Shown: positions 1 to 36,835, counted from the stretch's first letter. The stretch is 64,000 nucleotides of DNA from Candidatus Micrarchaeia archaeon (GCA_038874595.1 JAVZCB010000004.1:1-64000), one strand, 5' to 3'. A program made the numbers and translations. The notes: a model not told the origin generated them from the sequence alone.

Positions 1-680
1 AGTGAGATGAACAACGCAATCAAAAGGTTGCCGCCGTGTCTGGTAAACTTGAACGCACGCAAAAATATCCCAAGCGGGAGTATTAAAGCAGTGCCTTTGG
101 ATGAGATAATCCCAAGCAACTGTATATGGAACTGTAGAAATGTAAATGGTATGGCTAATAACATCTGCAAATCAGAAAATGTGGTTGTCAGTGGCTGGAA
201 TATTGCACCCAAAGATATACCTGAAGTTATAGACTTCATAAAACCTTCCAGTTCCTGGCCTTTATTGGTTTGTGAGTTCTGAGTATCTTGAGCACCGCTC
301 TGTGGCTCATTTGTCTGGCTTACTGCACCTTTTATATTTAGAATTGACGGGTTAATGTTCACTGAAAAGCTTGACAGGAATATTAGGGTGTTCATTCCTG
401 CAATCATGCTGAATTGGCAGTAGACATCATCAAAGAATAAATCATTCAGGTACTTCTGCCCGCTGTTCCTGTATTCGCTTATAAAACTCTGGCTTGCAAG
501 CGAAATCAGGGATGCAAAAAGGATGAGAGTAAGAAAAATGGACTGCAATTCATGACGCGCCCATGCACGAAGCAATTCAGAGCTTACCACATAGGAGAGC
601 ATATATATTAGCACTGAAAGTAAAAATGATGCAAGCACGCCAAACATTGCCAATTCATTCCACGTTACAACGACGCTCAT
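1..680 (-). CDS. Polytopic membrane protein, VirB6/CedA-like paralog 4 (partial, runs off the window; not in the ORF track)
   Basis: Manual translation from ATG 680, which overlaps the upstream stop (ATGA): MSVVVTWNELAMFGVLASFLLSVLIYMLSYVVSSELLRAWARHELQS...LPLGIFLRAFKFTRHGGNLLIALFIS. The end segment is in frame with the start. Shares both motifs of the three upstream paralogs. Confidence 0.8.
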   Translation of the reverse strand, partial: MSVVVTWNELAMFGVLASFLLSVLIYMLSYVVSSELLRAWARHELQSIFLTLILFASLISLASQSFISEYRNSGQKYLNDLFFDDVYCQFSMIAGMNTLIFLSSFSVNINPSILNIKGAVSQTNEPQSGAQDTQNSQTNKGQELEGFMKSITSGISLGAIFQPLTTTFSDLQMLLAIPFTFLQFHIQLLGIISSKGTALILPLGIFLRAFKFTRHGGNLLIALFIS

Positions 681-2113
681 AGCAACCTACTCAATCCTGG
701 TATATCTTGCTCACCGCCCAAAAGCGGGGATAACCCTCTTATGAAAGAAAACATAATGTAAAAGTTCATTATCGGGATTGCAACCGCAACTAACGCATAA
801 CGAGATAACATGTCAAAATACCCAATAGACCCGTTCTCATAGTTTGTATATAGCTGGTCAGCGGTTTTTATTGGGGAGCTTGCAAATGCCGCAAGCGCCA
901 TTATGATTGAGAAAACTATTGTTGCATCAAAACCAAGTTTCATAACGCCAAAAACTGTCGTTATAGGGTTTGCAAGCTCAATACCGCGCAAAACCATAAA
1001 CGCAATTATTGAAGCAAGTATCGCATATGCTGAGACAAGCTCGCTCGAGCCCCCACCACCTTGTGCTGCAAGCATCTTCATAAGATTGCCAAGCTGCTCG
1101 AAAAACCCAGTTAGCCCAGAAGATACATCTCCACCTGCAAGGCCTGAACCTCCTTTCTGTGAAATGCCTGCCTCCTGCATAGGCTTTATATCTAGCGTGT
1201 ACCATCCAAGTATGTAAAGGCCAGGAAGCACAAACATCATGCCTATTCCCATCGCAAGGAAAAGGCCACCCGCTTTCCTAAACACCCAGATAGAGCGCAA
1301 AAGGATACCTAAAACTATGAGAGCGCCCGCAAGGCCAAACTCAAAATATTTCAGTATGCTCTCCTGGAACTTTATGAGCATCATTAGCTTCTGTGTAAAT
1401 GTTACCATATCGCTTATGCAGGTCAGTAACACTGAATGTGTTGGATAGCCAGTACCAAAATTAATACCAAATTTCTTATCAAATATGAAAAATGAGTTTG
1501 AAAAACCCATAGAGTCTACAGCGCTAAGCGCGGAGTAGGAGTACATCATATTGCCCAACATGCCTGCAAGCTTCTCATATGTTATGCCCAAATATGCACG
1601 GGACATTAGGAATTTAGGGTCGCATGATGGCTGCGGACCATTACCGGACCATTTACATACTGGTGCTCCATCTTCAACCCTAATATAAAGGCCTTTGCCT
1701 TCGTTATTCTCCTTCCATCTGTTGGTTGATGGGTCAAACACAAGGTCGGTGCGCACGGTATGCATACACTCTTCATCAGTACACTGCGCTGCCGGGTTTA
1801 TCACGCCAACAAAGAAAGAACTCACAATATTGTCAAGAATGACAAGGACGCCTCCTATGCTTGCTATGATTATAAGGGAATATACAGCTTGCACAACCTC
1901 GTTCTTGCACCACGCCTTAAGCTCCTCATCCTGGAACACTCCTGACAGCATGTATGCCAAAGATACCAGTGTGAGATGCAGTATGACAATCAGTGCTGCA
2001 ATGCCCATCCACGTAGCAGGATTACCTAAATCATACGCACCTATTTGTTGCTGCGCTGCAAAAGACAATGATACGCAAACGACCAGTAATATGCCAAGGT
2101 GCCTCAGGTTCAC
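677..2113 (-). CDS. Polytopic membrane protein, VirB6/CedA-like paralog 3, with signal peptide and Cys-containing extracellular loop
   Basis: 478 aa. Motifs LAYMLS..EELKAWCKNE and GILLRSIWVFRKAGGLFLAMGIG..VLP; several TM helices; GTG start overlaps the upstream stop. Confidence 0.7.
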   Translation of the reverse strand: MNLRHLGILLVVCVSLSFAAQQQIGAYDLGNPATWMGIAALIVILHLTLVSLAYMLSGVFQDEELKAWCKNEVVQAVYSLIIIASIGGVLVILDNIVSSFFVGVINPAAQCTDEECMHTVRTDLVFDPSTNRWKENNEGKGLYIRVEDGAPVCKWSGNGPQPSCDPKFLMSRAYLGITYEKLAGMLGNMMYSYSALSAVDSMGFSNSFFIFDKKFGINFGTGYPTHSVLLTCISDMVTFTQKLMMLIKFQESILKYFEFGLAGALIVLGILLRSIWVFRKAGGLFLAMGIGMMFVLPGLYILGWYTLDIKPMQEAGISQKGGSGLAGGDVSSGLTGFFEQLGNLMKMLAAQGGGGSSELVSAYAILASIIAFMVLRGIELANPITTVFGVMKLGFDATIVFSIIMALAAFASSPIKTADQLYTNYENGSIGYFDMLSRYALVAVAIPIMNFYIMFSFIRGLSPLLGGEQDIPGLSRLL

Positions 2114-3015
2114 ATGCCCACCTCACCTATGAAATCGCGCGAGAACACCGGAAACAGGGAACGCGCAGCGGCAAGCGAGAATATCAATGCAAGCAAAGGT
2201 ATCGTAACCGCATACGGTGCGATGTATGCGAGTTCGGCTATTGCTTTTAAGGACTCGCCGTTGTCAAAAGAGTATACATCAAGGTCCATAGAAGATACGT
2301 CTTCTTTTATGCTATTGAGAGTGCTCTTGCCTATCTCCTTATGTACCATCCCGCCCATTACATATACAAGCGGAAACACAAAATAAAACGCCAATGCAAT
2401 CGAAATGAGATACGCACCAGCATCACGTGTGGTTGGAAGTATTTTAAGAATAAACCCTGCAGGCAGGAGAAGCGCAAGGAAAAACTGCTTGATTATATCT
2501 AGTGCCAGCATCTGGATTATTAAAGCTGCTGCAAAAGGCACATTTATATTTGCTATTGATTCCAGGTTGTTTGCAATATAAACCACTCCTGCATCATCAT
2601 TATAACACACACCGGCCATACAGGACGGTGCGGGGGTTATTATTGTTGCAGCTATACGTGCATCTATGGCAGATGTCCAGAGCGTATTGAGTGCTTTTGG
2701 GATCTGGCGTGTTGCGAATGCTGACATGTAGCTTTTTGCGGCATCAAAAGGGTCTGTACCTCCTGCAATATTCACGGACGCTGTACATAGCACCTCCGCA
2801 AATGCCAAAATGCCAAATATAAATATAATCGAAATAACCATACGGGCCAGCTCAACCTTAACTCGTGCTTCCCAGTCTGCACGTGAAAGGAATTTTGCAA
2901 GTATATAGAAAAGCGAGAGTATAATGAAAACTATTACGAACAGCAGCGTAACAATAGGTATCCATGCGAAATATCCTGTCTGCGGATCAATGTCAATTGG
3001 GCATACCACTACCAT
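2110..3015 (-). CDS. Polytopic membrane protein, VirB6/CedA-like paralog 2
   Basis: 301 aa. Motifs FYILAKF..ADWEARVKVE and GFILKILPTTRDAGAYLISIALAFYFVFP. Confidence 0.7.
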   Translation of the reverse strand: MVVVCPIDIDPQTGYFAWIPIVTLLFVIVFIILSLFYILAKFLSRADWEARVKVELARMVISIIFIFGILAFAEVLCTASVNIAGGTDPFDAAKSYMSAFATRQIPKALNTLWTSAIDARIAATIITPAPSCMAGVCYNDDAGVVYIANNLESIANINVPFAAALIIQMLALDIIKQFFLALLLPAGFILKILPTTRDAGAYLISIALAFYFVFPLVYVMGGMVHKEIGKSTLNSIKEDVSSMDLDVYSFDNGESLKAIAELAYIAPYAVTIPLLALIFSLAAARSLFPVFSRDFIGEVGM

Positions 3016-3024
3016 AACACCAGC

Positions 3025-4317
3025 CTAGATGAAAGTAAGCATATTAACTACTGATTCATCACCGCCAAGCGCCTGCACGAGGGCAGTTATCCCCGCGAGC
3101 GTGAACACAACATTAAAGAAAGGCAGGAAATATGCAAGCACGAGCACATCAGAGCTTACAGCAATCTGTGTGGATATCTTATCTGCAATTTCCAAACCTA
3201 TATATCCTGGGCCAAGCAGTGCTGCTTCAAGTATCGATTTTGCAGTGAGTATTAGCTGAGCTGCCATATTTACCATTGTTGCTATTAAATCGAAAGACCA
3301 TACTATTAAACCTATTATCCAACAGTATGACCAGGCATAAGCATAACAAACATAATTCCAGGGAGCGCTTAATTTCTCGCACGGGTTATCAAACCACTGG
3401 CAAAAGTCAAGCAGGTACTTAGGTATAAGCAGCATACCGAAAAATTTACCAATCGGTGATGCTAAATTGCCCATATCCATATCGATTATGCTCTTGCTTT
3501 CTGGCTCTGCCATCTGACCTGATGCTGCAAGGCTTGAATAAACACCTGCTTCAAGCACGAGCGCAAGCTTAAGGAAAAGGAATCCTCCAAGGAAGATACC
3601 AAACATGGTGCTTCCCATCCTGCGCGTGAAAACAAATGCACGCAAAAATATTGCAAGGCCAAGGAACACATAAAGTGACTTCTCAATGAACACCAGGATT
3701 GTGTACTGGGCAGCTATAGAAAATATGCCCATTATAAGTATCGGTGAGAACATCCCGGCAAACAGGTACACGAGCGAATATACGGAATGGGGTGTATAAT
3801 AGAGGGATGAGCTCCAATTAACTATTCCAAAAACTGATTGGAACGCTGTTGGAATCCAGCCAATCGCCCCCATCAACCCAACCTGTGCCATAAATAATGA
3901 AAGTTGAACAACCTTAGAGAATGCACTGTCAATTACATATGAGAACAGTTCGTTGTATGTGTAGGCATCTTTTGAGCCTGCTGGTGCAACCAAAAACGAA
4001 TCTACCAATGCATTAAAAACGGGGATGAGTGAAACAACAAGCCCTACATACAACGTGCTCATAAAAGCCTCACGCAGCTCAGCCCTGCTCCACACCTCCA
4101 TTTCACGAGATGAAAAAATCCTTGCAGCCATAAAACCGAGCGCTACGATGAGGTATGAAATTATAAGGGCAAGCGCAATACCATAATTATACAAGAAACC
4201 TGATAATTCGCCGCTTGTTTGGTTGTAATTGTAATTACTCGAGCTATCCGCAAATGCAATGAAAACCACTAAGAATAAGAAGACTGCAAACACTGTATGC
4301 AGACGCATAAATACCAT
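3025..4317 (-). CDS. Polytopic membrane protein, VirB6/CedA-like paralog 1
   Basis: 430 aa. Signal peptide; motifs GFMAARIF..REMEVWSRAE and AIFLRAFVFTRRMGSTMFGIFLG; first gene of the operon. Confidence 0.7.
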   Translation of the reverse strand: MVFMRLHTVFAVFLFLVVFIAFADSSSNYNYNQTSGELSGFLYNYGIALALIISYLIVALGFMAARIFSSREMEVWSRAELREAFMSTLYVGLVVSLIPVFNALVDSFLVAPAGSKDAYTYNELFSYVIDSAFSKVVQLSLFMAQVGLMGAIGWIPTAFQSVFGIVNWSSSLYYTPHSVYSLVYLFAGMFSPILIMGIFSIAAQYTILVFIEKSLYVFLGLAIFLRAFVFTRRMGSTMFGIFLGGFLFLKLALVLEAGVYSSLAASGQMAEPESKSIIDMDMGNLASPIGKFFGMLLIPKYLLDFCQWFDNPCEKLSAPWNYVCYAYAWSYCWIIGLIVWSFDLIATMVNMAAQLILTAKSILEAALLGPGYIGLEIADKISTQIAVSSDVLVLAYFLPFFNVVFTLAGITALVQALGGDESVVNMLTFI

Positions 4318-4370
4318 TCGTTCATTAAGAATATAAATATGTACTACAAATGTGTTAAATAGGGTATTGT
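4318..4370. promoter_or_regulatory. Short AT-rich divergent promoter region
   Basis: 53-bp gap between divergent genes containing TATA-like TATAAATA and TTAAATA. Confidence 0.4.
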
Positions 4371-7300
4371 ATGGGGTTGCACTCTAAAGCACTGGTATTA
4401 TCATTAATCGTGCTTTTTCTTATGGCCACAATCGCACATAGTGGCGCAAGCTGCATAATACAAAAAGCCGAGACAAGCATACGGGTAAGTGAATATTATG
4501 ATGAGGATACTGGGCAGTTGGCTGTGAGTGCGCGGCTTACATACACAAATCTTGACACAGGAAAAACAGAAGGGCTTGGCCAACAGGAGCTTGAGTTTAT
4601 TGTGAATTATACCACCAGTGAAGGCGAAAAAAGCGATAAGTTCAAGATGCAAACTGACACACGGGGATGGGCCACAGTTAACTTTGTGATTCCGGGAGCG
4701 ATTAAACACACTGCTACTGTGATATACAAAGGAAATGATGCATTTAAAGAAAGCATTGGGACTGTTGGAGGGTCTGCAAGAAGCAGCACATCATTTGAGA
4801 CAGGCCTGCCGCAGGATATTAATCTTGTTGCATGTCTTCCTTTACTGATCTTAGTAGGATTTCTCGGTGCCGCAATGTACGCTTCAGGAAGGAATCCCTT
4901 TGGGGTTGTTGATTTTACGGCACCGCGTGGAATTACCACTCAGCGTAGGGTAATGAAAGCGTTCCAGGCTGGGTGGGTGGCCCAAATTTTCGCAATTAGT
5001 GGTGGTGTTGTAGGTGCAATTGCAACTTCGATGGTTGGTGCAAAAGCGATACCAAGAGAAAGTGAGAAGGAAAAAGGAAAAGAAGAAGCGTCCAAACAAA
5101 AAGGTGAAGAGCAAAAAGGAGGCCACGTCAAAGGTGCTGTTGGGGATTTAGAGGCAAAACCAAAAAAGAAAGAGCCAGAACCACAACAAACCAAACCGCC
5201 GGTACCTGCCACACCAACTGAACAAGCAAGTAAAAGTAATGTGGTTATACGCGATGCTGAGAAGCTTTCGCAGGTAACATTACCTAAAATAGTACATACC
5301 GTTAGTGGATTTGGAGCAACCCTTGGTATTATAGGTGTAATTTTATCAGTTCTTGGAGGTAACGTGTGGGCTGCCATGGGGATTAAGAAGGAAAAGGTGT
5401 ATACAAAAGATAAGGATGGAAAAGAGGTCGTTGTTGAGAGAATTGTAACCAAACCTATGGCTGAAAATATGGTTAGAAAAGTGCATGCGCTCGCAAAAGA
5501 AGAGAAAGCAAAATTTGGCTCAATAAGCAAAGAAGGAGACTCGCTTGTTCTTGTCTATGATAAAGAGGGTGGAACTTGGAAATTTACAAAATTGAGTGAT
5601 TTAAAAAGCGAGCTGGAAAATAGAATAAAAGAGCTAGAAAATGCTAAAAATAAATGTGGAAAACAAAAAGAAGAAATTGAGAAGGAGATTAGAGAGTTGA
5701 AGGGTTCAATCCAAAAAATAGAAGAAAAAATAAGCGGCCTTAAGGAGACTGCGGCAAAGCACAGCAAGGAGCTTGATGAGAAGGAAAAGGCTGTGTCAAG
5801 CTTGAAAAAAGAAAAGGAGCAGCTAGAGAAAGATAAAGCTGCTTTGGAAAAGCAAATTAAGCCTCCTGTTAAAGGAGAAACTGACGACCAAAGAAAAGCA
5901 CGCGAAAAGAACAATGCTGAAATTCAGAAAAAGATTAATGAAATAGAGGGCAAGTTAAAAGCCGCTAAAGAAAAACTTACAATTGCATTGAGTGAGGTTA
6001 ATGCACTCAGCAATAAAGCTAAAGAATCAGGTGAAATGCTTGCCAAAGCGGATGTTGAGTTAAACCAGGCAAAGCATAAGCTTGCTATGCTTAACAATAA
6101 CAAAGATGCGCTGTCAGACCATCTTAAAGAAAACGAAAGAGACTTGAAAAAAGTTGACGCTGCGTTGAAAGATATAAACAATACCATGGATGCAAACAAG
6201 AAGGTCTATGACAAATACGTTAAAGACATTCGTGAGAAATACGGTTCAGACCTTGAGAAAGCCGGTGTAAAAAAAGAAGATAACATAACACCAAAGGTTA
6301 TTGATGAGCTCATTAAGAATGCACAGGAAGACCTTAAATCGGCAAAAACGAAGGATGAAAAAGCAGCAATTGAAAAGAAAATCGATGATTTGAAAAACAG
6401 GAAAGATAATTTGCAGGATGCAAACATCAAAAGTCAAGAAAGCAATAGCGCAGCTTACATTACATCTGAGGTGGTCAAAAGCAATATTAAAGAGTCTGAA
6501 AAAAGTGTTGGAAGAGGGCGTTTTCTGTGCAACTCAACCGCGGAAGAGGTTGCTAAAGCAGATGTTTACAGCAGGGCTGAAGAAGCTGCAGGAAAAGAAA
6601 GGGAGATTGCAGGCATTAAAAGCCTGGTAGATAAAGCAGATTTCTCTTTAAAAAGAGACTATGGAGAAGCTTTCGTCAGTGCAGATAATGCGCTTGACGC
6701 GTTAATAGGTGTTGCTGCAAAGAGGTATGGTAGTAACAGCGAAGAGGTTGCTAAGCTACACAAGCTAAAAGAAGAATTGGAAAATACCGGAGATGTTAGG
6801 AAGGTTATCAACAACGTAGAGCCATTTGTAAAAGATGAAATGAAAAATGCGAGAAATAATCTAGAGAATGTTGCGAATTTTGCAGTAAAGCTTGGTGTTG
6901 GTGTTGAGCCAGGTAGTGTAAAGATACGCGAGCTGCCGCCTGGTGAGGAAAAACTTGCAAGGGAGCGTGGTGAGATTGCACCGTATGGTGTCAGTGTCGA
7001 GCGCTCAGTGCCACCAGGGGGTGTTGACTCATATATCAAGAGCATTACTGATAATAAAGATATAGCTCAAAGTGCTAAAAACCAAAATATATATCTTAAC
7101 GCTGGTGGTGAAGATCTCGCAATAAATAATAAAAAATACAGCGATAAACAGCTTGTCTCAGCTAACCTTGATGAAATAATAAAAATACATAATGAAAAAG
7201 ACATTGTTAACTTCGTAGAGAAAAATCCAGATGCCGCACAGGTACTTAGAAGTACCCTTGAGCTTGAAAGCACAGCTGGAGCTGAGGATATTGCAAAAGC

Positions 7301-8009
7301 TTGCTTGAATAAAGAAAAATTTGGAACAAAGCTTGAAGGTTTAGCTTCAGAATATGATAAAATAGCTAAACCTCCTCAAAAGTCACCTGAGCTTGATGAG
7401 ATACTGGCAGCTGCAGCGATGAGAGATTACGGAGGGTTTAGGGTAAAATCTCCTTCTTTTGATAAAGCTGTTGAAAGCCTTAAAAGAGATGCCGAAGCTA
7501 AAACTGTTGGAAAAATTGTGGTGTTTAAAGAGCAGCAGGAGTACTATGAGGCAAAAGAGAAATATGACAAAGCAAAAGAAGAGTATGATAATGCATTTAA
7601 TGAATACGAGAAAAACAAATCTGAATTATTAGGTAAATGGCTCAAGGAAAAAGAAAACAACTTAATAAGCGCTAGTCGTTTATTAGGAGATGCAGAACAA
7701 GAATTTAACGACAAAATCACCAAAACTGAGGGTAATGTTTTAGAAAAAATAGATATTATGAAATCAGATAAAACGCTCGAAGACTGGAAAAAAGCTAGAG
7801 ATGAATATGACAAATCTCTCAAAAACCTTAACAACACCACTTATGCAAGCTATTTGATTAATGAAAAAGGAGATAAGGATTTCTACCTGGGAGGGGAAAA
7901 GGAAAACTATAAGCAAGCAATCGCAGAGGAAAAACTTGTTGAGAGATTAAACTCCGTCCTAACATCATATCCTGAAGGCATTGATAAGCTCGACTGGTTA
8001 AGAAAATAA
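4371..8009 (+). CDS. Large membrane-anchored protein: signal peptide, Ig-like beta domain, TM helix, Gly-rich hydrophobic segments, long coiled coil
   Basis: 1212 aa. Hydrophobic N-terminus, beta-rich residues ~30-135, TM LPLLILVGFLGAAMY followed by GRNPFGVVDFTAPR, K/E-rich heptad region ~400-690. Confidence 0.8.
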   Translation: MGLHSKALVLSLIVLFLMATIAHSGASCIIQKAETSIRVSEYYDEDTGQLAVSARLTYTNLDTGKTEGLGQQELEFIVNYTTSEGEKSDKFKMQTDTRGWATVNFVIPGAIKHTATVIYKGNDAFKESIGTVGGSARSSTSFETGLPQDINLVACLPLLILVGFLGAAMYASGRNPFGVVDFTAPRGITTQRRVMKAFQAGWVAQIFAISGGVVGAIATSMVGAKAIPRESEKEKGKEEASKQKGEEQKGGHVKGAVGDLEAKPKKKEPEPQQTKPPVPATPTEQASKSNVVIRDAEKLSQVTLPKIVHTVSGFGATLGIIGVILSVLGGNVWAAMGIKKEKVYTKDKDGKEVVVERIVTKPMAENMVRKVHALAKEEKAKFGSISKEGDSLVLVYDKEGGTWKFTKLSDLKSELENRIKELENAKNKCGKQKEEIEKEIRELKGSIQKIEEKISGLKETAAKHSKELDEKEKAVSSLKKEKEQLEKDKAALEKQIKPPVKGETDDQRKAREKNNAEIQKKINEIEGKLKAAKEKLTIALSEVNALSNKAKESGEMLAKADVELNQAKHKLAMLNNNKDALSDHLKENERDLKKVDAALKDINNTMDANKKVYDKYVKDIREKYGSDLEKAGVKKEDNITPKVIDELIKNAQEDLKSAKTKDEKAAIEKKIDDLKNRKDNLQDANIKSQESNSAAYITSEVVKSNIKESEKSVGRGRFLCNSTAEEVAKADVYSRAEEAAGKEREIAGIKSLVDKADFSLKRDYGEAFVSADNALDALIGVAAKRYGSNSEEVAKLHKLKEELENTGDVRKVINNVEPFVKDEMKNARNNLENVANFAVKLGVGVEPGSVKIRELPPGEEKLARERGEIAPYGVSVERSVPPGGVDSYIKSITDNKDIAQSAKNQNIYLNAGGEDLAINNKKYSDKQLVSANLDEIIKIHNEKDIVNFVEKNPDAAQVLRSTLELESTAGAEDIAKACLNKEKFGTKLEGLASEYDKIAKPPQKSPELDEILAAAAMRDYGGFRVKSPSFDKAVESLKRDAEAKTVGKIVVFKEQQEYYEAKEKYDKAKEEYDNAFNEYEKNKSELLGKWLKEKENNLISASRLLGDAEQEFNDKITKTEGNVLEKIDIMKSDKTLEDWKKARDEYDKSLKNLNNTTYASYLINEKGDKDFYLGGEKENYKQAIAEEKLVERLNSVLTSYPEGIDKLDWLRK

Positions 8010-8048: not shown

Positions 8049-8435
8049 TCACTTTTCTGAGGAGTATATTTTCTCTACACGGTCTTCTATGTGCATCTTA
8101 TCTTTTCCGTAAATATGTGGAAGAAGTGCACCGCTGAATGTCCTTGGTATGTGCAAGAGCTCGTGAAGTATTGTTTTCTCCTTCTCGATATCAGAGAGCT
8201 TGTCAAACCGCTCGCTTATCACTTCAAGGACATAAAACGTGCTTATGCCAAGAGCGACCTGCCACGCTTTCGGCATTGACCAGATGCGCGCATACGCACG
8301 TGCGGAGCTGCCGAATGAGCGGATGCATATCACACGAAACTGGTTTATATGTGGAAAATTATCCCTGAACTTCTCAATCGTGCTGAACATAATCTTTTCA
8401 ACATCCGGGGCCTGCTCGTACCTTATGCTTGGCAT
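8049..8435 (-). CDS. Putative metallopeptidase (phage-metallopeptidase-like, HExxH)
   Basis: 128 aa; ILHELLHIP zinc motif preceded by YARIW...FD.L. Confidence 0.7.
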   Translation of the reverse strand: MPSIRYEQAPDVEKIMFSTIEKFRDNFPHINQFRVICIRSFGSSARAYARIWSMPKAWQVALGISTFYVLEVISERFDKLSDIEKEKTILHELLHIPRTFSGALLPHIYGKDKMHIEDRVEKIYSSEK

Positions 8436-32280: not shown

Positions 32281-32598
32281 ATGAATAAGTATGGATACTT
32301 TGCATTGATTGCTTTGCTGCTCGCAATCAATGTGGCATTTGCTCAAACAAACACTGCGTTGAGCACGCAGCTTGAGAATATAAAGAACAGCCTTAAAACC
32401 ATACTGCCTATCGTTGCAATCGTTATGATTGTGCTTGCGGGCGTGGTATACGCTGCAGGGCAGGTAATGGGAGCTGAGATGAGGTCCAGGGCAAGTGTGT
32501 GGGCCACATCACTGCTTGTCGGTGCTATCATCGGATTGATACTCGCTGCAAGCGCTGAGGCTATCGTTGGCCTGTTCAGCAGCGCATCACTGTTCTAA
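32281..32598 (+). CDS. TrbC/VirB2-like pilin, copy 1
   Basis: Signal peptide ending VAFA, then two hydrophobic helices separated by a short basic loop (GAEMRSRASVW). Confidence 0.75.
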   Translation: MNKYGYFALIALLLAINVAFAQTNTALSTQLENIKNSLKTILPIVAIVMIVLAGVVYAAGQVMGAEMRSRASVWATSLLVGAIIGLILAASAEAIVGLFSSASLF

Positions 32599-32695: not shown

Positions 32696-33010
32696 ATGAA
32701 TAAGTATGGATACTTTGCGCTGGTCGCATTGCTACTTGCAATCAACGTAGCATTTGCTGCTAACACACAATTGATCTCACAGCTTGAAGGCATAAAAAAC
32801 AGCCTTAAAACCATACTGCCTATCGTTGCAATCGTTATGATTGTGCTTGCAGGCGTGGTATACGCTGCAGGGCAGGTAATGGGAGCTGAGATGAGGTCCA
32901 GGGCAAGTGTGTGGGCCACATCACTGCTTGTCGGTGCTATCATCGGATTGATACTCGCTGCAAGCGCTGAGGCTATAGTAGGTCTGTTTAGCAGTGCATC
33001 ACTATTCTAG
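32696..33010 (+). CDS. TrbC/VirB2-like pilin, copy 2
   Basis: Identical to copy 1 from IKNSL to the C-terminus; differs by one residue in the signal peptide and in the mature N-terminus. Confidence 0.75.
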   Translation: MNKYGYFALVALLLAINVAFAANTQLISQLEGIKNSLKTILPIVAIVMIVLAGVVYAAGQVMGAEMRSRASVWATSLLVGAIIGLILAASAEAIVGLFSSASLF

Positions 33011-33042: not shown

Positions 33043-34575
33043 ATGTGTGGTCAGATGAGATGGGGGTACTGGCCAGCTCTTTATTCCGTAATACTTCTTG
33101 TTTCCTTTGTAATAAGCGCATCACAACCGTTAGTCGGTGATGAAGAGCAATACGCAATTGCAATAAAAGATGTCCAGCACTATGGGATACAGCCGTATGC
33201 AACTTATTTTGGAGAGCCGATGTTCTGGAAGCCCCCACTTTCATTTGCAATCTATGGTATAATCACAGCGCCAATTATAGGGGTCTTCCCGGAAACCGTC
33301 GCACTCCGCATCCCTTCCCTTTTGTTTGTGATTTTAGGGGTTGTTGCGTATTACCTACTGGTAAAGGATGACCTGGGAGAGGAAAAAACAAAATATGCGG
33401 TTCTGATTCTCTTAGTATCCTTGCCTGTTTTTTGGTTTGGTACCAGGATATTGACAGATATACCCGCCTTCGCCTTTACGATTATTATGTTATATGCACT
33501 AAAGAGGTATGCTGCTAAATGGAATGCTGGATTTCTGGGGTTATATGCAATCTCATTAGTCATTATTGGGCTTACAAAATCAGCCGCAATTTCTGTGCTT
33601 GCATTCTTACTTAGCGTGGTATATCTTTGGACATCTGGTATAAAAGAGCATAGTAAAATGCTAATAGCCGTTCTTGTGGGAGCTATCACAGCAGGTTTTA
33701 TTTTTTTTGGATATCCTCTTCTTCTGCAGGGATACGGTGAGGATGCATACAACAGCGGATTATTCGATTTAATAAGGATAGTCACACCTTTCCTCGATGT
33801 CATAATTTATAGGAACCTGCCAATTTATGTTTTCTTAATGCTCCCGCTGGGTGTGGTTGCAGTATTTTTTGCCATAAAAAACGCAATAAAAAGCAGGTCA
33901 ATCTTATTCTACGAGATATGGGCACTTTCATCACTTGCAGCTGTGATTAGTGCATGGGGATTCCTGCCGTGGTATCTGCTGTTCTTTGCACCCGCGTTTG
34001 CATATGTGGTTGCAAGAAATATTGAGGATAATATCATTGATAAGGCAACTATTATCTTCTTGGTACTGATATCGCTTGCATTGCATTGGGGGGTATCCCT
34101 AGCATTTTTTGGAGTGAGACAGGACTCCAAAGAGATAATGGATTATATTAAGTATATTGGCGATGAGAAAGTCATGCTCATAACACAACTCTCTGACGGA
34201 ACGGTGAATGCAGTATATGACTTGCCATATAAAGTGATTGTTACACCTGAAATAGGGATGGGTCGGCTAGACGCAAAAACTCGCAACATAACGTTCTGGG
34301 GAGTGAAGGAAAACACCACTGTTCCCAACAATATGCGCGGGCTTATCTATGATTATGATAATGAATCACTGCTTCCAAAGTTCATAGATAAGCTGAATAA
34401 AAAAGATTTGTATGTGCCGCCGGTTGCAAGAACAAGAAAATACTGGGATGGGGGGTTTGATGTAATTATCGCAAGAAAAGATTATGCTGATTCAATAAAG
34501 AAAGTTGCACCAGAGTATAAGGTTGTTTACACAACATCAAACAATGTTTATTATGTTTTCAAAAAGGAAAGTTAG
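33043..34575 (+). CDS. GT-C fold glycosyltransferase (ArnT/PMT-like), paralog 1
   Basis: GDEEQYA...FWKPPL...RIPS; many TM helices; soluble C-terminal domain. Confidence 0.8.
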   Translation: MCGQMRWGYWPALYSVILLVSFVISASQPLVGDEEQYAIAIKDVQHYGIQPYATYFGEPMFWKPPLSFAIYGIITAPIIGVFPETVALRIPSLLFVILGVVAYYLLVKDDLGEEKTKYAVLILLVSLPVFWFGTRILTDIPAFAFTIIMLYALKRYAAKWNAGFLGLYAISLVIIGLTKSAAISVLAFLLSVVYLWTSGIKEHSKMLIAVLVGAITAGFIFFGYPLLLQGYGEDAYNSGLFDLIRIVTPFLDVIIYRNLPIYVFLMLPLGVVAVFFAIKNAIKSRSILFYEIWALSSLAAVISAWGFLPWYLLFFAPAFAYVVARNIEDNIIDKATIIFLVLISLALHWGVSLAFFGVRQDSKEIMDYIKYIGDEKVMLITQLSDGTVNAVYDLPYKVIVTPEIGMGRLDAKTRNITFWGVKENTTVPNNMRGLIYDYDNESLLPKFIDKLNKKDLYVPPVARTRKYWDGGFDVIIARKDYADSIKKVAPEYKVVYTTSNNVYYVFKKES

Positions 34576-34580
34576 GGGAG

Positions 34581-36092
34581 ATGTTGAAAATGACTCCTAT
34601 AAAAAACATGGTGCTGTTTTTAATTGCGTTTGCATTGTACTTATTGATTGTATTATCATCTAATTACTGGTTTATAGGTGATGAAGGGTTTTATGCAATA
34701 AGCATTTTTGAAGCTATAAAAAACGGGCCGCAGCTTTACATAACATTCCTTGGCACACCGGTCTTCTGGAAGCCATTTCTGATGATAGATGTTTATGCAA
34801 TGCTGGTGCAGCCACTTGCAAGCGTGCTGCCTCCTTATACTGCATACAGAATTCCCTCAGCGCTCTTCTCTGCCATCAATGTTGTGCTTGTATATCACAT
34901 AAGCAAAGAGTTCTTCGAAGAGAAAAAAGCGCTTATGATATCCGCGCTGTATGCACTCAACCCACTGATACTTTTGTTTGGGACAAAGGTGTTTATGGAA
35001 TCTCTCACGATGTCTTTTGTGTTTTTTGGGCTTCTTGCAACAACTCATATATGCAAAAAAGATAGCAAGCTGGATTGGGTTTCGGCTTTTCTTGGGATAG
35101 CACTTGCCATCACTGGCGCATCTTTCTCAAAATCAACAACAATCGGGCTTATGGCGTTCCTGATTTATGGTATGTACGCGTTCCTGGCGAACAGGAAAAA
35201 AATATGGGTTATTGCGCTTGCAGGCGTTGTCTCAGCTGCGGTAGTTTTTATAGTTCCGTTCCTTACAAAATTTCCTGATGCATTCTTCAAGCTTTATATG
35301 GAGGACTTCTTTACAAGAAGGATTGATTTTGAAACCTACCCGGAAAACATAATCTCGATGGCAGCATTGTCATCCTATCTTATACCATTGCTTTTTGTAA
35401 GTATACTTGGAATACGTAAGCTGGATTCCAAAGAACTATTTCTTGTGCTGTGGGTATTGCCCCTTCCTGTGATTATGCTAATGACTCCATACGTATGGTA
35501 CGGTTATTACTTTGTTCTTCCGCTTGTTGCAATCTCATTGATGGGCATTTCTCCCAGCAACAAAATTGATATGGCTATTGTAATCGCGATGCTAGTGCTT
35601 GGACTTTTGATATATGCTGGTGCCGAGGCATCGCACAGCCAAATAAGTGAGCTCAAGACGATTGAGTATATGGAAAAGCACATTGAAAGGGAACAATGTA
35701 TTTTGTATGTTGGTGCATTAAGCCCAATGACTATTGCATACCTTGAAGTGAGCGGCCACAACTTTAATGCAATCATAAACAATGCTGCAATTGATAAAAA
35801 GGCCAACGGCACGAGCACTATCATTCTTGATGCAAACCTAACACAGGAACAATTGCAAGTTGCTGTTTATGATTATATGAATGTGAGGTTTGCCGAGGAT
35901 ATTTCAAATAGAAAATACCTGTTTGCGCAGTGGAAAGGCCCTGGGAGCAATTTAAGGCTCAAGAGCATCAATAAAAAATGCTCCGATTTTGAATATGTGA
36001 TTGTGACTGATTATTATAAGAGATTGACAATTAATGGATATCAGCTTGTAAGTGATGAGGATCAGATGCGCGTATGGAAAAGGCAAAAATAA
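34581..36092 (+). CDS. GT-C fold glycosyltransferase (ArnT/PMT-like), paralog 2
   Basis: GDEGFYA...FWKPFL...RIPS; same architecture as the upstream paralog. Confidence 0.8.
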   Translation: MLKMTPIKNMVLFLIAFALYLLIVLSSNYWFIGDEGFYAISIFEAIKNGPQLYITFLGTPVFWKPFLMIDVYAMLVQPLASVLPPYTAYRIPSALFSAINVVLVYHISKEFFEEKKALMISALYALNPLILLFGTKVFMESLTMSFVFFGLLATTHICKKDSKLDWVSAFLGIALAITGASFSKSTTIGLMAFLIYGMYAFLANRKKIWVIALAGVVSAAVVFIVPFLTKFPDAFFKLYMEDFFTRRIDFETYPENIISMAALSSYLIPLLFVSILGIRKLDSKELFLVLWVLPLPVIMLMTPYVWYGYYFVLPLVAISLMGISPSNKIDMAIVIAMLVLGLLIYAGAEASHSQISELKTIEYMEKHIEREQCILYVGALSPMTIAYLEVSGHNFNAIINNAAIDKKANGTSTIILDANLTQEQLQVAVYDYMNVRFAEDISNRKYLFAQWKGPGSNLRLKSINKKCSDFEYVIVTDYYKRLTINGYQLVSDEDQMRVWKRQK

Positions 36093-36142: not shown

Positions 36143-36835
36143 CTAACTTTTGCTTTTAAGCTTGCCAATTAAGAGCATAGCCACCTGCTTGAGAAACTCT
36201 GCCCTGGTTTTCAGGTCAAGCTTGCTGCTGCCTTTTTTGCGCATATGAAATACTATTGGAATTTCCTTCACCTTTGCAAACCGACCTCTCGCCAATATTT
36301 CAAGCAAAATCTTATAACCCACTGGATTGAGCCTTGGGACAAGGGATAGGAATTTCCTGCGTTCCAGCATAAAAAAGCCGCTTAGCGGGTCGTACGCTTT
36401 CATGCCAAGCACATCCCTGCATAGAAAGGTCCCAACCTTTGAATCGAGGCGCTGCTGGTTACGGAGGTTCTTCACAAACCGCGAGCCAATCACTATTGAG
36501 TTTGGGGTGCGCACTATATAGTTATACATTTCAGGCAGGTATTTCGGGTCGTGCTGAAGGTCACCATCCATAACACACACATACTTTCCTCTTGAGTGTT
36601 TCAGGCCGGTTATAACCGCACTTGAAAGCCCCATCTTTTTTCCGCGCTCAATTAGCCTTATCTTTTTATTTTTCTTTTGCAAGGCGCGCACGAGCGCTTC
36701 CGTGCCGTCTTCTGAGCCGTCATCTATGAATATCACTTCATAATCAATATTTTTGAGCGACGAACCTATCCTGGAGATAAGAACCGGGATATTGCCGGCT
36801 TCATTGTAAACTGGGATTATCACTGAAAGGTCCAC
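36143..36835 (-). CDS. Polyprenol-phosphate mannose synthase-like GT2 (DPM1 family)
   Basis: SVIIPVYNE, IDDGSEDGT, GLSSA, MDGDLQHDP, GSRF, DPLSGFF, GYKILLE. Confidence 0.88.
   Translation of the reverse strand: MDLSVIIPVYNEAGNIPVLISRIGSSLKNIDYEVIFIDDGSEDGTEALVRALQKKNKKIRLIERGKKMGLSSAVITGLKHSRGKYVCVMDGDLQHDPKYLPEMYNYIVRTPNSIVIGSRFVKNLRNQQRLDSKVGTFLCRDVLGMKAYDPLSGFFMLERRKFLSLVPRLNPVGYKILLEILARGRFAKVKEIPIVFHMRKKGSSKLDLKTRAEFLKQVAMLLIGKLKSKS

Follow-up and report, generated by a model that had tools for sequence, protein, structure and literature searches.

Two arrays of six membrane paralogs in a Micrarchaeota genome, one leading to a giant lipoprotein: candidate parts of a conjugation-derived surface system

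The first 4317 bases of a 64,000-nucleotide stretch of DNA from a Candidatus Micrarchaeia archaeon (GCA_038874595.1, JAVZCB010000004.1:1-64000; hereafter the window) encode four consecutive membrane proteins of one paralogous family, considered here as a candidate VirB6/CedA-like membrane base. The window comprises bases 1-64000 of contig C4 of a 918 kb (0.92 Mb) genome in 7 contigs, 93.5% complete. To our knowledge, host attachment and material uptake by DPANN archaea are unresolved and no apparatus has been assigned to them in Micrarchaeota; in the searchable literature we found no description of a type IV secretion system (T4SS)-like system, or of arrays such as these, in Micrarchaeota. The array genes of the window and the features next to them are listed below (aa, amino acids; ORF, open reading frame; E, E-value).

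3025-4317, minus strand: paralog 1 (A), 430 aa; family hidden Markov model (HMM) match with E 6e-85
2110-3015, minus strand: paralog 2 (B), 301 aa, the smallest, a five-helix member; ORF list and AlphaFold2 (AF2) model
677-2113, minus strand: paralog 3 (C), 478 aa, GTG start; its large outer loop contains cysteine; ORF list
1-680 (ORF 3-680), minus strand: paralog 4 (D), cut by the contig end after its N-terminal 226 aa; the last 112 aa are on contig C1:1-339
4318-4370: divergent intergenic spacer, 53 bp, AT-rich, between paralog A and the coiled-coil gene, with the TATA-like ATATAAATA and TTAAATA
4371-8009, plus strand: divergent coiled-coil membrane protein cc1212, 1212 aa; ORF list and domain scan

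An earlier note on this stretch, made from the sequence alone, described four tightly packed minus-strand paralogs with two 4-bp overlaps and one 9-bp gap, and the mechanical ORF list, which contains all four genes although the note called one of them absent from the ORF track, gives exactly this spacing from A to D. Both motif sets that it quoted are present in the window proteins: the first reads ELKAWCKNE, DWEARVKVE, EMEVWSRAE and LLRAWARHE, and the second is a G..L(R/K)....(T/F)R..G pair common to the four. Paralog A combines a signal-like N-terminus, a transmembrane (TM) hairpin with the EMEVWSRAE loop, a FLRAFVFTRRMG loop, and a C-terminal LGGD...FI tail. In pairwise BLASTP, similarity within the window is weak but collinear (A-D, 8e-5 over 218 aa; C-D, 1e-6; B-C, 1e-3 in two collinear pieces), and the four genes are true paralogs, with similarity above chance. 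The note's "at least four" holds for the window but is an undercount, the array having six members and the genome 12. Its assignment of the DNA to a probable DPANN archaeon agrees with the named close homologs of the 478-aa paralog C, which point to Micrarchaeota; the 14 orthologs of this protein are all from Micrarchaeota wherever the source is named. The spacer at 4318-4370 is presumed, from its sequence, to be the promoter region.

The window starts at base 1 of contig C4, that is, at a contig end, and the continuation of the operon was traced by tblastn of array genes from relatives against the contigs of this genome. The search placed the end of D, paralogs E and F, and the downstream genes from base 1 of contig C1 onward; therefore, C4 and C1 abut. 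As reconstructed from these matches, the array-1 operon is approximately 22 kb long, running from window position 4317 down to base 1 and then along C1:1-17544 through the following genes.

C1:1-339, forward: paralog D, last 112 aa
C1:340-1482, forward: paralog 5 (E)
C1:1484-2563, forward: paralog 6 (F)
C1:2645-3418, forward: 257-aa gene, G257 (LolA-fold protein)
C1:3415-12045, forward: 2876-aa giant lipoprotein gene
C1:12117-13913, forward: 598-aa cysteine-rich protein gene
C1:13900-17544, forward: 1214-aa cysteine-rich protein gene

The G257 and giant genes overlap by 4 bp. A contig of the relative L007 shares the window's neighbors: STT3, glutamate dehydrogenase, PCNA, Trm56, and a metallopeptidase, as well as a coiled-coil protein of 1161 aa. 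Beyond them lie genes of 426, 301, 472, 337, 367, 360, and 235 aa and then a gene of >2948 aa; gene order in the relative L009 resembles both L007 and the window operon. Inspection to the left of the window, which the earlier note had proposed as a way to find more paralogs and a VirB4-type ATPase, thus yielded paralogs 5 and 6, but what stands beside the operon is the LolA-fold protein and the giant lipoprotein instead of the ATPase.

A genome-wide HMM search found 12 family members and no more, arranged as two arrays of six genes. Array 2 (paralogs H-M) occupies C3:36874-45147, with LeuRS on one flank and two FtsZ genes on the other; these tandem FtsZ genes and a gene for a DUF2070 membrane protein come directly after it (C3:45564-49557). 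BLAST links every pair among the 12 copies, down to 4e-18, and the best partners between arrays match position by position at five of the six positions (B-I, 6e-15; C-J, 5e-13; D-K, 1.5e-6; E-L, 3e-11; F-M, 4e-18). A tree supports the pairs B+I (93), C+J (97), and F+M (82), with array-2 positions 1 and 5 on long branches and without supported placement. The C-terminal LGGD...GL.R.I tail is absent only from the position-2 proteins, and this in both arrays. Since pairing is position-wise and the tail is missing at position 2 in both arrays, the paralogs diversified before the whole block was duplicated; by sequence, arrays 1 and 2 are two copies of one six-gene block of ancient paralogs. The trees, with their long branches, do not place the single array of the relative G024 (family f3) nearer to array 1 or to array 2.

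What distinguishes the two arrays is their neighborhood. The neighbor survey covered families f1 (G000, G004, L007, L009), f13 (G046, G122), f15 (G099), f2 (G033), f9 (G060), and f18 (G142). Each of the two-array genomes G000, G033, G046, G060, G099, and G142 has one array followed by an ORF of 1294-2876 aa, directly or after a gene of 216-258 aa, and a second array without a giant neighbor (6/6). The same array-then-giant order was found in G004, L007, and L009, in which only the giant-type array was examined, and G122 encodes a 3197-aa giant on a contig that ends before the array. All ten giants, from six families, begin with a lipobox-type signal peptide (e.g., LLSSGC, ILSTGC, FLALGC, FLAGC). 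In the 2876-aa protein, the lipobox LLSSGC is at residues 15-20, and the protein is predicted from this signal peptide to be a lipoprotein. Pfam and NCBIfam recognized no domain in it, a search of the ESM Atlas with its first 1700 aa gave no usable match, and self-BLAST revealed no internal repeats. When position-6 proteins were placed in a tree with position 5 as the root, the giant-linked arrays grouped apart from the others, with 2 label changes compared to a mean of 7.3 in shuffled labels (0/500 as low); therefore, the duplication is older than these families, and the window array is of the giant-linked type.

Between the paralogs and the giant lies G257, which has a TM helix at its N-terminus; a disordered linker rich in sequons follows, and then a domain of 170 aa in which four cysteines are conserved. 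Homology search returned only 5 sequences; the AF2 model (11 sequences) reached a predicted local distance difference test (pLDDT) of ~90 in the domain. The best Foldseek match had E 1e-4 (prob 1.00); 24 matches were at E<=1e-3, those listed being LolA-like half-barrels (VioE, EPDR1, MucB), and RseB, LolA, and LprG scored slightly above E 1e-3. VIA gave Z 7-10.7 and a root-mean-square deviation (rmsd) of 3.6-4.7 Å over 120-148 residues to RseB, EPDR1, VioE, LolA, LolB, and LprG. As modeled, G257 is a membrane-anchored protein with a LolA-like half-barrel (unclosed beta-barrel) fold. A predicted fold of the lipid- or lipoprotein-binding type, encoded between the paralogs and the giant and overlapping the latter by those few bases, is the strongest hint as to what the module may handle.

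On the other side of the array, cc1212 has a signal peptide, a small outer N-domain, three TM segments, and ~870 aa of K/E-rich coiled coil, presumably cytoplasmic. A homolog stands beside each giant-type array in f1, f2, f9, f13, f15, and f18, except in G004, G122, and L009, where contigs end too soon. The TM region of cc1212 was tested for pilin likeness and is not pilin-like. To the right of the window, a 2232-aa ORF (C4 68184-74882) has an N-terminal membrane region resembling that of cc1212 (phmmer 1.3e-5).

A search of 1.84 billion proteins with a profile built from 23 members of the paralog family gave 3192 cluster representatives at E<=1e-3, of which 630 also reached E<=1e-30. The conserved order begins with TM1, which ends in Y-M, and a short loop with W.K.E leads on to TM2. 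After a variable region come FQ..L and then LP.G..LR..P.TR..G between TM3 and TM4; a second variable region, TM5, and the LGGD...GL.R.I tail follow. A five-helix layout with a large central outer loop fits both the hydropathy and the AF2 helices of paralog B. The N-termini of several paralogs look like signal sequences, and the short conserved loops carry basic residues; we therefore infer a core of five TM helices with the N-terminus outside, the C-terminus inside, and the conserved motifs facing the cytoplasm. Among the 14 orthologs of paralog C, identity is 0.71-0.83 in the cytoplasmic motifs and TM3-5, compared to 0.30-0.46 in the presumed outer loops; an expanded family with divergent outer loops, as in the earlier note, is supported. 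In family f2 (G033, G059, G087, G128, G021), some members are inside ORFs of 1105-1492 aa, and members of 1080-1548 aa are among the cluster representatives listed, so the five-helix core is in some cases joined to large additional domains.

In this analysis, the family was observed only in Micrarchaeota. We surveyed 151 genomes of the phylum, as the earlier note had suggested; related genomes among them are non-independent samples, and the set includes the unpublished G037, on which alone no claim rests. The paralog family is present in 135/151 and a VirB2-type pilin in 129/151, both being absent from families f10, f14, f16, f17, and f19 and from most of f11. Copy number is bimodal: ~6-8 scored matches per genome in f3, f4, and f7, and mostly about 11 or more in f1, f2, f5, f6, f8, f9, f12, f13, f15, f18, and f20; the full count in four two-array genomes gave 14-17 matching pieces.

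Contrary to the refuting case named in the earlier note (an unrelated fold and no co-occurring VirB4-like ATPase), the expected companions of a T4SS-type membrane subunit, a VirB4-like ATPase and pilins, are both encoded in this genome, at the following loci.

32281-32598, plus strand: VirB2/TrbC-type pilin, 105 aa; PF04956 34.4 bits (cut-off 27.9), PF18895 32.4 bits (cut-off 26.6)
32696-33010, plus strand: second, tandem, near-identical VirB2-type pilin, 104 aa; PF04956 E 1.2e-5 and 25.8 bits, just below the cut-off; pilin HMM E 4e-35
C3:87223-94535: ATPase operon of seven genes, namely pilin-like T113, T253 and T266 (both with two TM helices), the VirB4/CedB-like ATPase, T150, T246, and T870

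The first window pilin has a signal peptide and a two-helix hairpin. In total, the genome has three VirB2-type pilin genes, two in the window and one beside the ATPase operon on C3; the window pilins are not part of the array-1 operon, the nearest pilin genes being 28 kb from array 1. The tandem pilins are followed by PMT_2-type glycosyltransferases (33043-34575, 34581-36092) and a minus-strand GT2 gene (36143-36835), and, judged by gene content, the segment 32281-38011 may be a pilin glycosylation cassette. The single VirB4-clade ATPase (C3:91041-92804) matches AAA_10, DUF87, and the TraG P-loop, and in NCBIfam matches CedB best (4.5e-23), followed by CedD (1.3e-18) and TraC (7e-18), all under the families' own cut-offs. 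Among its operon partners, most gave nothing usable in Pfam or NCBIfam; T246 has a weak match to EAP30/winged helix-turn-helix. Two other DUF87 matches were rejected as the ATPase: the one at C1:48636 is a P-loop kinase in a SecY/ribosomal operon, and the strong one at C1:64213 is a HerA that stands alone, none of its neighbors being related. Genome searches found no VirB4 N-domain (PF03135).

Array and ATPase meet in G024. This single-contig genome carries a pilin-like gene, a 243-aa gene, six paralogs, and then T253-like, T266-like, ATPase, T150-like, T246-like, and T870-like genes, a layout equal to the ATPase operon described above, which keeps the same order without the paralog array, with the array inserted.

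These findings bear on two explanations in which the system moves DNA. According to the first, the two arrays can stand in for each other as channel or platform modules of a single Ced-like pilus machine for DNA import or exchange, driven by the single ATPase, and the giant is a physically unlinked adhesin. One ATPase operon and three pilin genes serving two arrays, the same cytoplasmic motifs kept in both arrays, and an ATPase whose best NCBIfam match is the DNA-import protein CedB would all suit it. We nevertheless consider it quite unlikely, because the link between the giant-type array and a giant lipoprotein persists in six families though the giants are no longer recognizably alike, the operon genes are closely spaced, including the 4-bp overlap of G257 with the giant, the CedB match is far under its cut-off (81.7 vs 700 bits), and genome searches turned up no DNA-processing partner, coupling protein of the VirD4 type (PF02534), or relaxase (PF03432). 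The second, that the locus is part of a self-transferring integrated conjugative element, is extremely improbable: VirB2 and VirB4 homologs in the genome speak for it, but in relatives STT3, glutamate dehydrogenase, PCNA, and Trm56 are conserved in chromosomal synteny with the locus, the family is present in most of the genomes sampled from the phylum (135/151), the searches for a relaxase and a coupling protein were negative, and the GC content in 2-kb windows around the locus (0.38-0.44) is inside the range of the remaining window. The earlier note's suggestion of DNA transfer or effector delivery thus gained no specific support.

Likeness to VirB6 was examined at the level of fold and profile. 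The AF2 model of paralog B, computed from a 92-sequence alignment, reached a pLDDT of 91.3 and a predicted template modeling score (pTM) of 0.84, and Foldseek against the PDB ranked TrwI/VirB6 of R388 at the top, weakly (E 0.42, TM-score 0.31-0.33). In a second look with VIA, TrwI came first (Z 8.3, rmsd 6.8 Å, 235/261 residues aligned), and a VIA search of 48,161 chains, independent of Foldseek, gave DotA (Z 8.8, 263 residues aligned) and TrwI (Z 8.3) among its top four, together with TMEM94 and short helical hairpins. DotA and TrwI, both T4SS membrane subunits, were the only near-full-length fold matches. In addition, hhalign aligned a 50-sequence pilin alignment with the family over 104 collinear columns (score 30.9, E 4.5e-4, probability 33%) and with its N-terminal part alone at E 9e-5 (probability 59%), whereas controls with the rest of the protein or with reversed columns scored 16-17 compared to 30-31. 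The pilin profile covers the first 115 profile columns of the family, comprising the signal peptide, TM1 with its I-Y-A/Y-M motif, the loop, and TM2. This arrangement has a precedent: CedA's N-terminal part is reported to be related to the pilin CedA1, and VirB6 and VirB2 are likewise related, more weakly (Beltran et al., PMC9905601).

Taking fold, gene context, and pilin likeness together, we regard the family as the counterpart of VirB6/CedA in function; it is probably a very distant relative of these proteins. Several results weigh against this reading and against its extension to the giant. Pfam shows no PF04610 match in the four window proteins, in 92 family members, or in the six-frame genome; the lack of a canonical VirB6 to fill the role in this genome, on the other hand, speaks for the reading. 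The 92 members have no meaningful Pfam match of any kind, and the five paralogs tested have none in NCBIfam. Searching PDB sequences with the two family profiles gave no match. In hhalign, the 92-sequence family alignment matched a 23-sequence Agrobacterium-type VirB6 profile with a probability of only 1.5% (E 0.034, 33 columns), although this profile is narrow (>=36% identity) and a broader one might differ; a PLSDB search to broaden it returned almost exclusively Rhizobiales and was not used. The fold scores (E 0.42; Z 8.3-8.8, rmsd 6.7-7.9 Å) are inside the range that the tool gives for unrelated helical proteins, TMEM94 and TTYH scoring similarly to TrwI and DotA, and the pilin-hairpin similarity, at probabilities of only 33-59%, involves TM helices. 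As to the VirB6/CedA-like channel of the earlier note, the best full-length fold matches, weak as they are, point to T4SS subunits, but sequence shows no membership in VirB6/TrbL. Furthermore, neither array adjoins the ATPase operon, and the array-1 operon itself encodes no energy source; the giants form two groups (f1/f13/f15 and f2/f9/f18) not detectably homologous to each other; and the LolA-fold gene was found only in f1, f13, and f15.

Some of these observations suit an explanation in which the family is not T4SS-derived, and array 1 with the LolA-fold protein forms an independent, hitherto undescribed envelope machine for lipids or lipoproteins, acting in placement of the giant's anchor or in uptake of host lipids that the archaeon is unable to make. 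Proximity to T4SS genes in some genomes would then reflect a shared surface function only. Besides the missing similarity to VirB6/TrbL or any PDB chain, the helical-noise level of the fold matches, and the missing ATPase, the presence of a LolA/LprG-fold protein and a lipoprotein in one operon favors it. We judge it unlikely, since in G024 the array is located between pilin and VirB4-like ATPase in one gene train, family and pilin share their distribution across families, the N-terminal hairpin exceeds its controls against the pilin profile, the two best full-length matches among all chains searched are both T4SS membrane subunits, and the LolA-fold gene is confined to three families.

We lean modestly toward the joint reading, according to which a six-paralog VirB6/CedA-like membrane base belongs to a conjugation-derived system and array 1 serves the giant surface lipoprotein. 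The six-gene set most likely forms a conjugation-derived membrane base that carries a giant lipid-anchored surface protein. In such a scheme, the family would fill the membrane-platform role in a chromosomal T4SS/Ced-like system whose pilins and ATPase are encoded elsewhere. The six paralogs would assemble into one hetero-oligomeric base, with a fixed stoichiometry because the order is fixed, each position has one copy, and translation is coupled. The conserved cytoplasmic face would dock a common partner, and the variable outer face, with the LolA-fold protein, would hold or present the Sec-exported, lipid-anchored giant at the surface for host contact, G257 handling the lipid anchor of the giant or another lipid. 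The analysis shows the gene structure, paralogy, block duplication, synteny, predicted folds, lipoboxes, and a pilin and an ATPase in the genome; assembly into a complex, a part for the ATPase, and transport of any kind are inferred. A bolder version, in which a T4SS-derived ring of six VirB6-like paralogs and the LolA-fold carrier plants the lipid anchor of a giant adhesin in the host membrane or pulls host lipids into a cell unable to make them, we hold to be very doubtful.

VirB6 has approximately five TM helices, an outer N-terminus, an inner C-terminus, and a large central outer loop. Like the members of VirB6/TrbL (TrwI of R388, PDB 7o3v/8rt9/8rtd; Agrobacterium VirB6) and DotA of Legionella Dot/Icm (9ngy), the Micrarchaeota proteins are polytopic, of ~300 aa, with a five-TM core; TrwI and DotA are their best, though weak, full-length structural matches, and the G024 array between VirB2 pilin and VirB4-like ATPase adds a likeness in gene order. 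They differ in having neither a PF04610 match nor a profile-profile match, and their motifs (W.K.E, LR..P.TR..G, LGGD...GL.R.I) are not those of VirB6. VirB6 is one gene, whereas the Micrarchaeota family has six fixed paralogs per array and two arrays in this genome, and the coupling of array 1, unlike that of VirB6, is to a giant lipoprotein instead of the ATPase.

The archaeal Ced (Sulfolobales: CedA, CedA1, CedB) and Ted (Thermoproteales: TedA, TedC, TedB) systems import DNA (PMC9905601). Like the Micrarchaeota set as read here, they derive from a T4SS that was domesticated on the chromosome, and they combine a pilin like VirB2 and an ATPase like VirB4 with a polytopic membrane protein whose N-terminal part resembles the pilin. 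In contrast, CedA and TedA each come as one gene, descriptions of these systems include no giant lipoprotein, LolA-fold protein, or membrane coiled-coil protein, and DNA import is not indicated for the Micrarchaeota arrays. Epibionts of the Patescibacteria/Candidate Phyla Radiation (CPR) keep a chromosomal VirB2/VirB4/VirB6-type set, which is reported to be essential for epibiotic growth in one cultured strain (PMC12102498). Here the likeness lies in a reduced-genome, host-dependent organism with a chromosomal set outside a typical conjugative context; the CPR systems, however, are bacterial and of monoderm type, with recognizable VirB6, VirB3, and VirB8 profiles and no six-fold paralog arrays. 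Nanohaloarchaeota produce giant "SPEARE" surface proteins with a VirB4/TraG-like ATPase domain, proposed for host contact (PMC10266531). Both cases tie a DPANN giant surface protein genetically to T4SS-type parts, but in SPEARE the ATPase domain is fused to the giant, whereas here a lipoprotein without recognizable domains follows six membrane paralogs.

G257 resembles LolA, LolB, LprG, RseB, and EPDR1 in its predicted unclosed beta-barrel and in being operon-encoded with polytopic membrane proteins, just as LprG is encoded in one operon with its partner transporter. It differs in showing no sequence similarity to them and in its N-terminal TM anchor, sequon-rich linker, and four conserved cysteines. 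We know of no Lol pathway in Archaea.

The locus names a defined, conserved set, namely six fixed block-duplicated paralogs, a LolA-fold protein, a giant lipoprotein, and a membrane coiled-coil protein; through distribution, and through gene order in relatives, the module is linked with a pilin of VirB2 type and a motor resembling VirB4/CedB. On this genomic evidence, the array-1 module is a concrete candidate for how Micrarchaeota cells contact their hosts, and its gene set could be sought by cryo-electron tomography, proteomics, or antibody labeling in the few cultured Micrarchaeota. If true, the reading would widen the known range of conjugation-derived machines, and it would be the first case known to us of a six-fold differentiated VirB6-like subunit and of a second copy that lacks a motor and is devoted to a surface lipoprotein. 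Were the lipid-handling version true, it would supply a long-sought route by which Micrarchaeota acquire membrane lipids.

Two minor features complete the neighborhood. Downstream of the giant, the 598- and 1214-aa proteins (C1:12117-17544) are TM-anchored and mutually homologous (2e-11), with 13-16% cysteine in ~29-aa repeats; the larger has a dockerin type I match, and Pfam and NCBIfam gave nothing usable in the smaller. In the window, the protein encoded at 8049-8435 (128 aa) carries the domain "putative phage metallopeptidase" (PF18894, 72 bits); its gene adjoins Trm56 here as it does in L007, in conserved chromosomal synteny.

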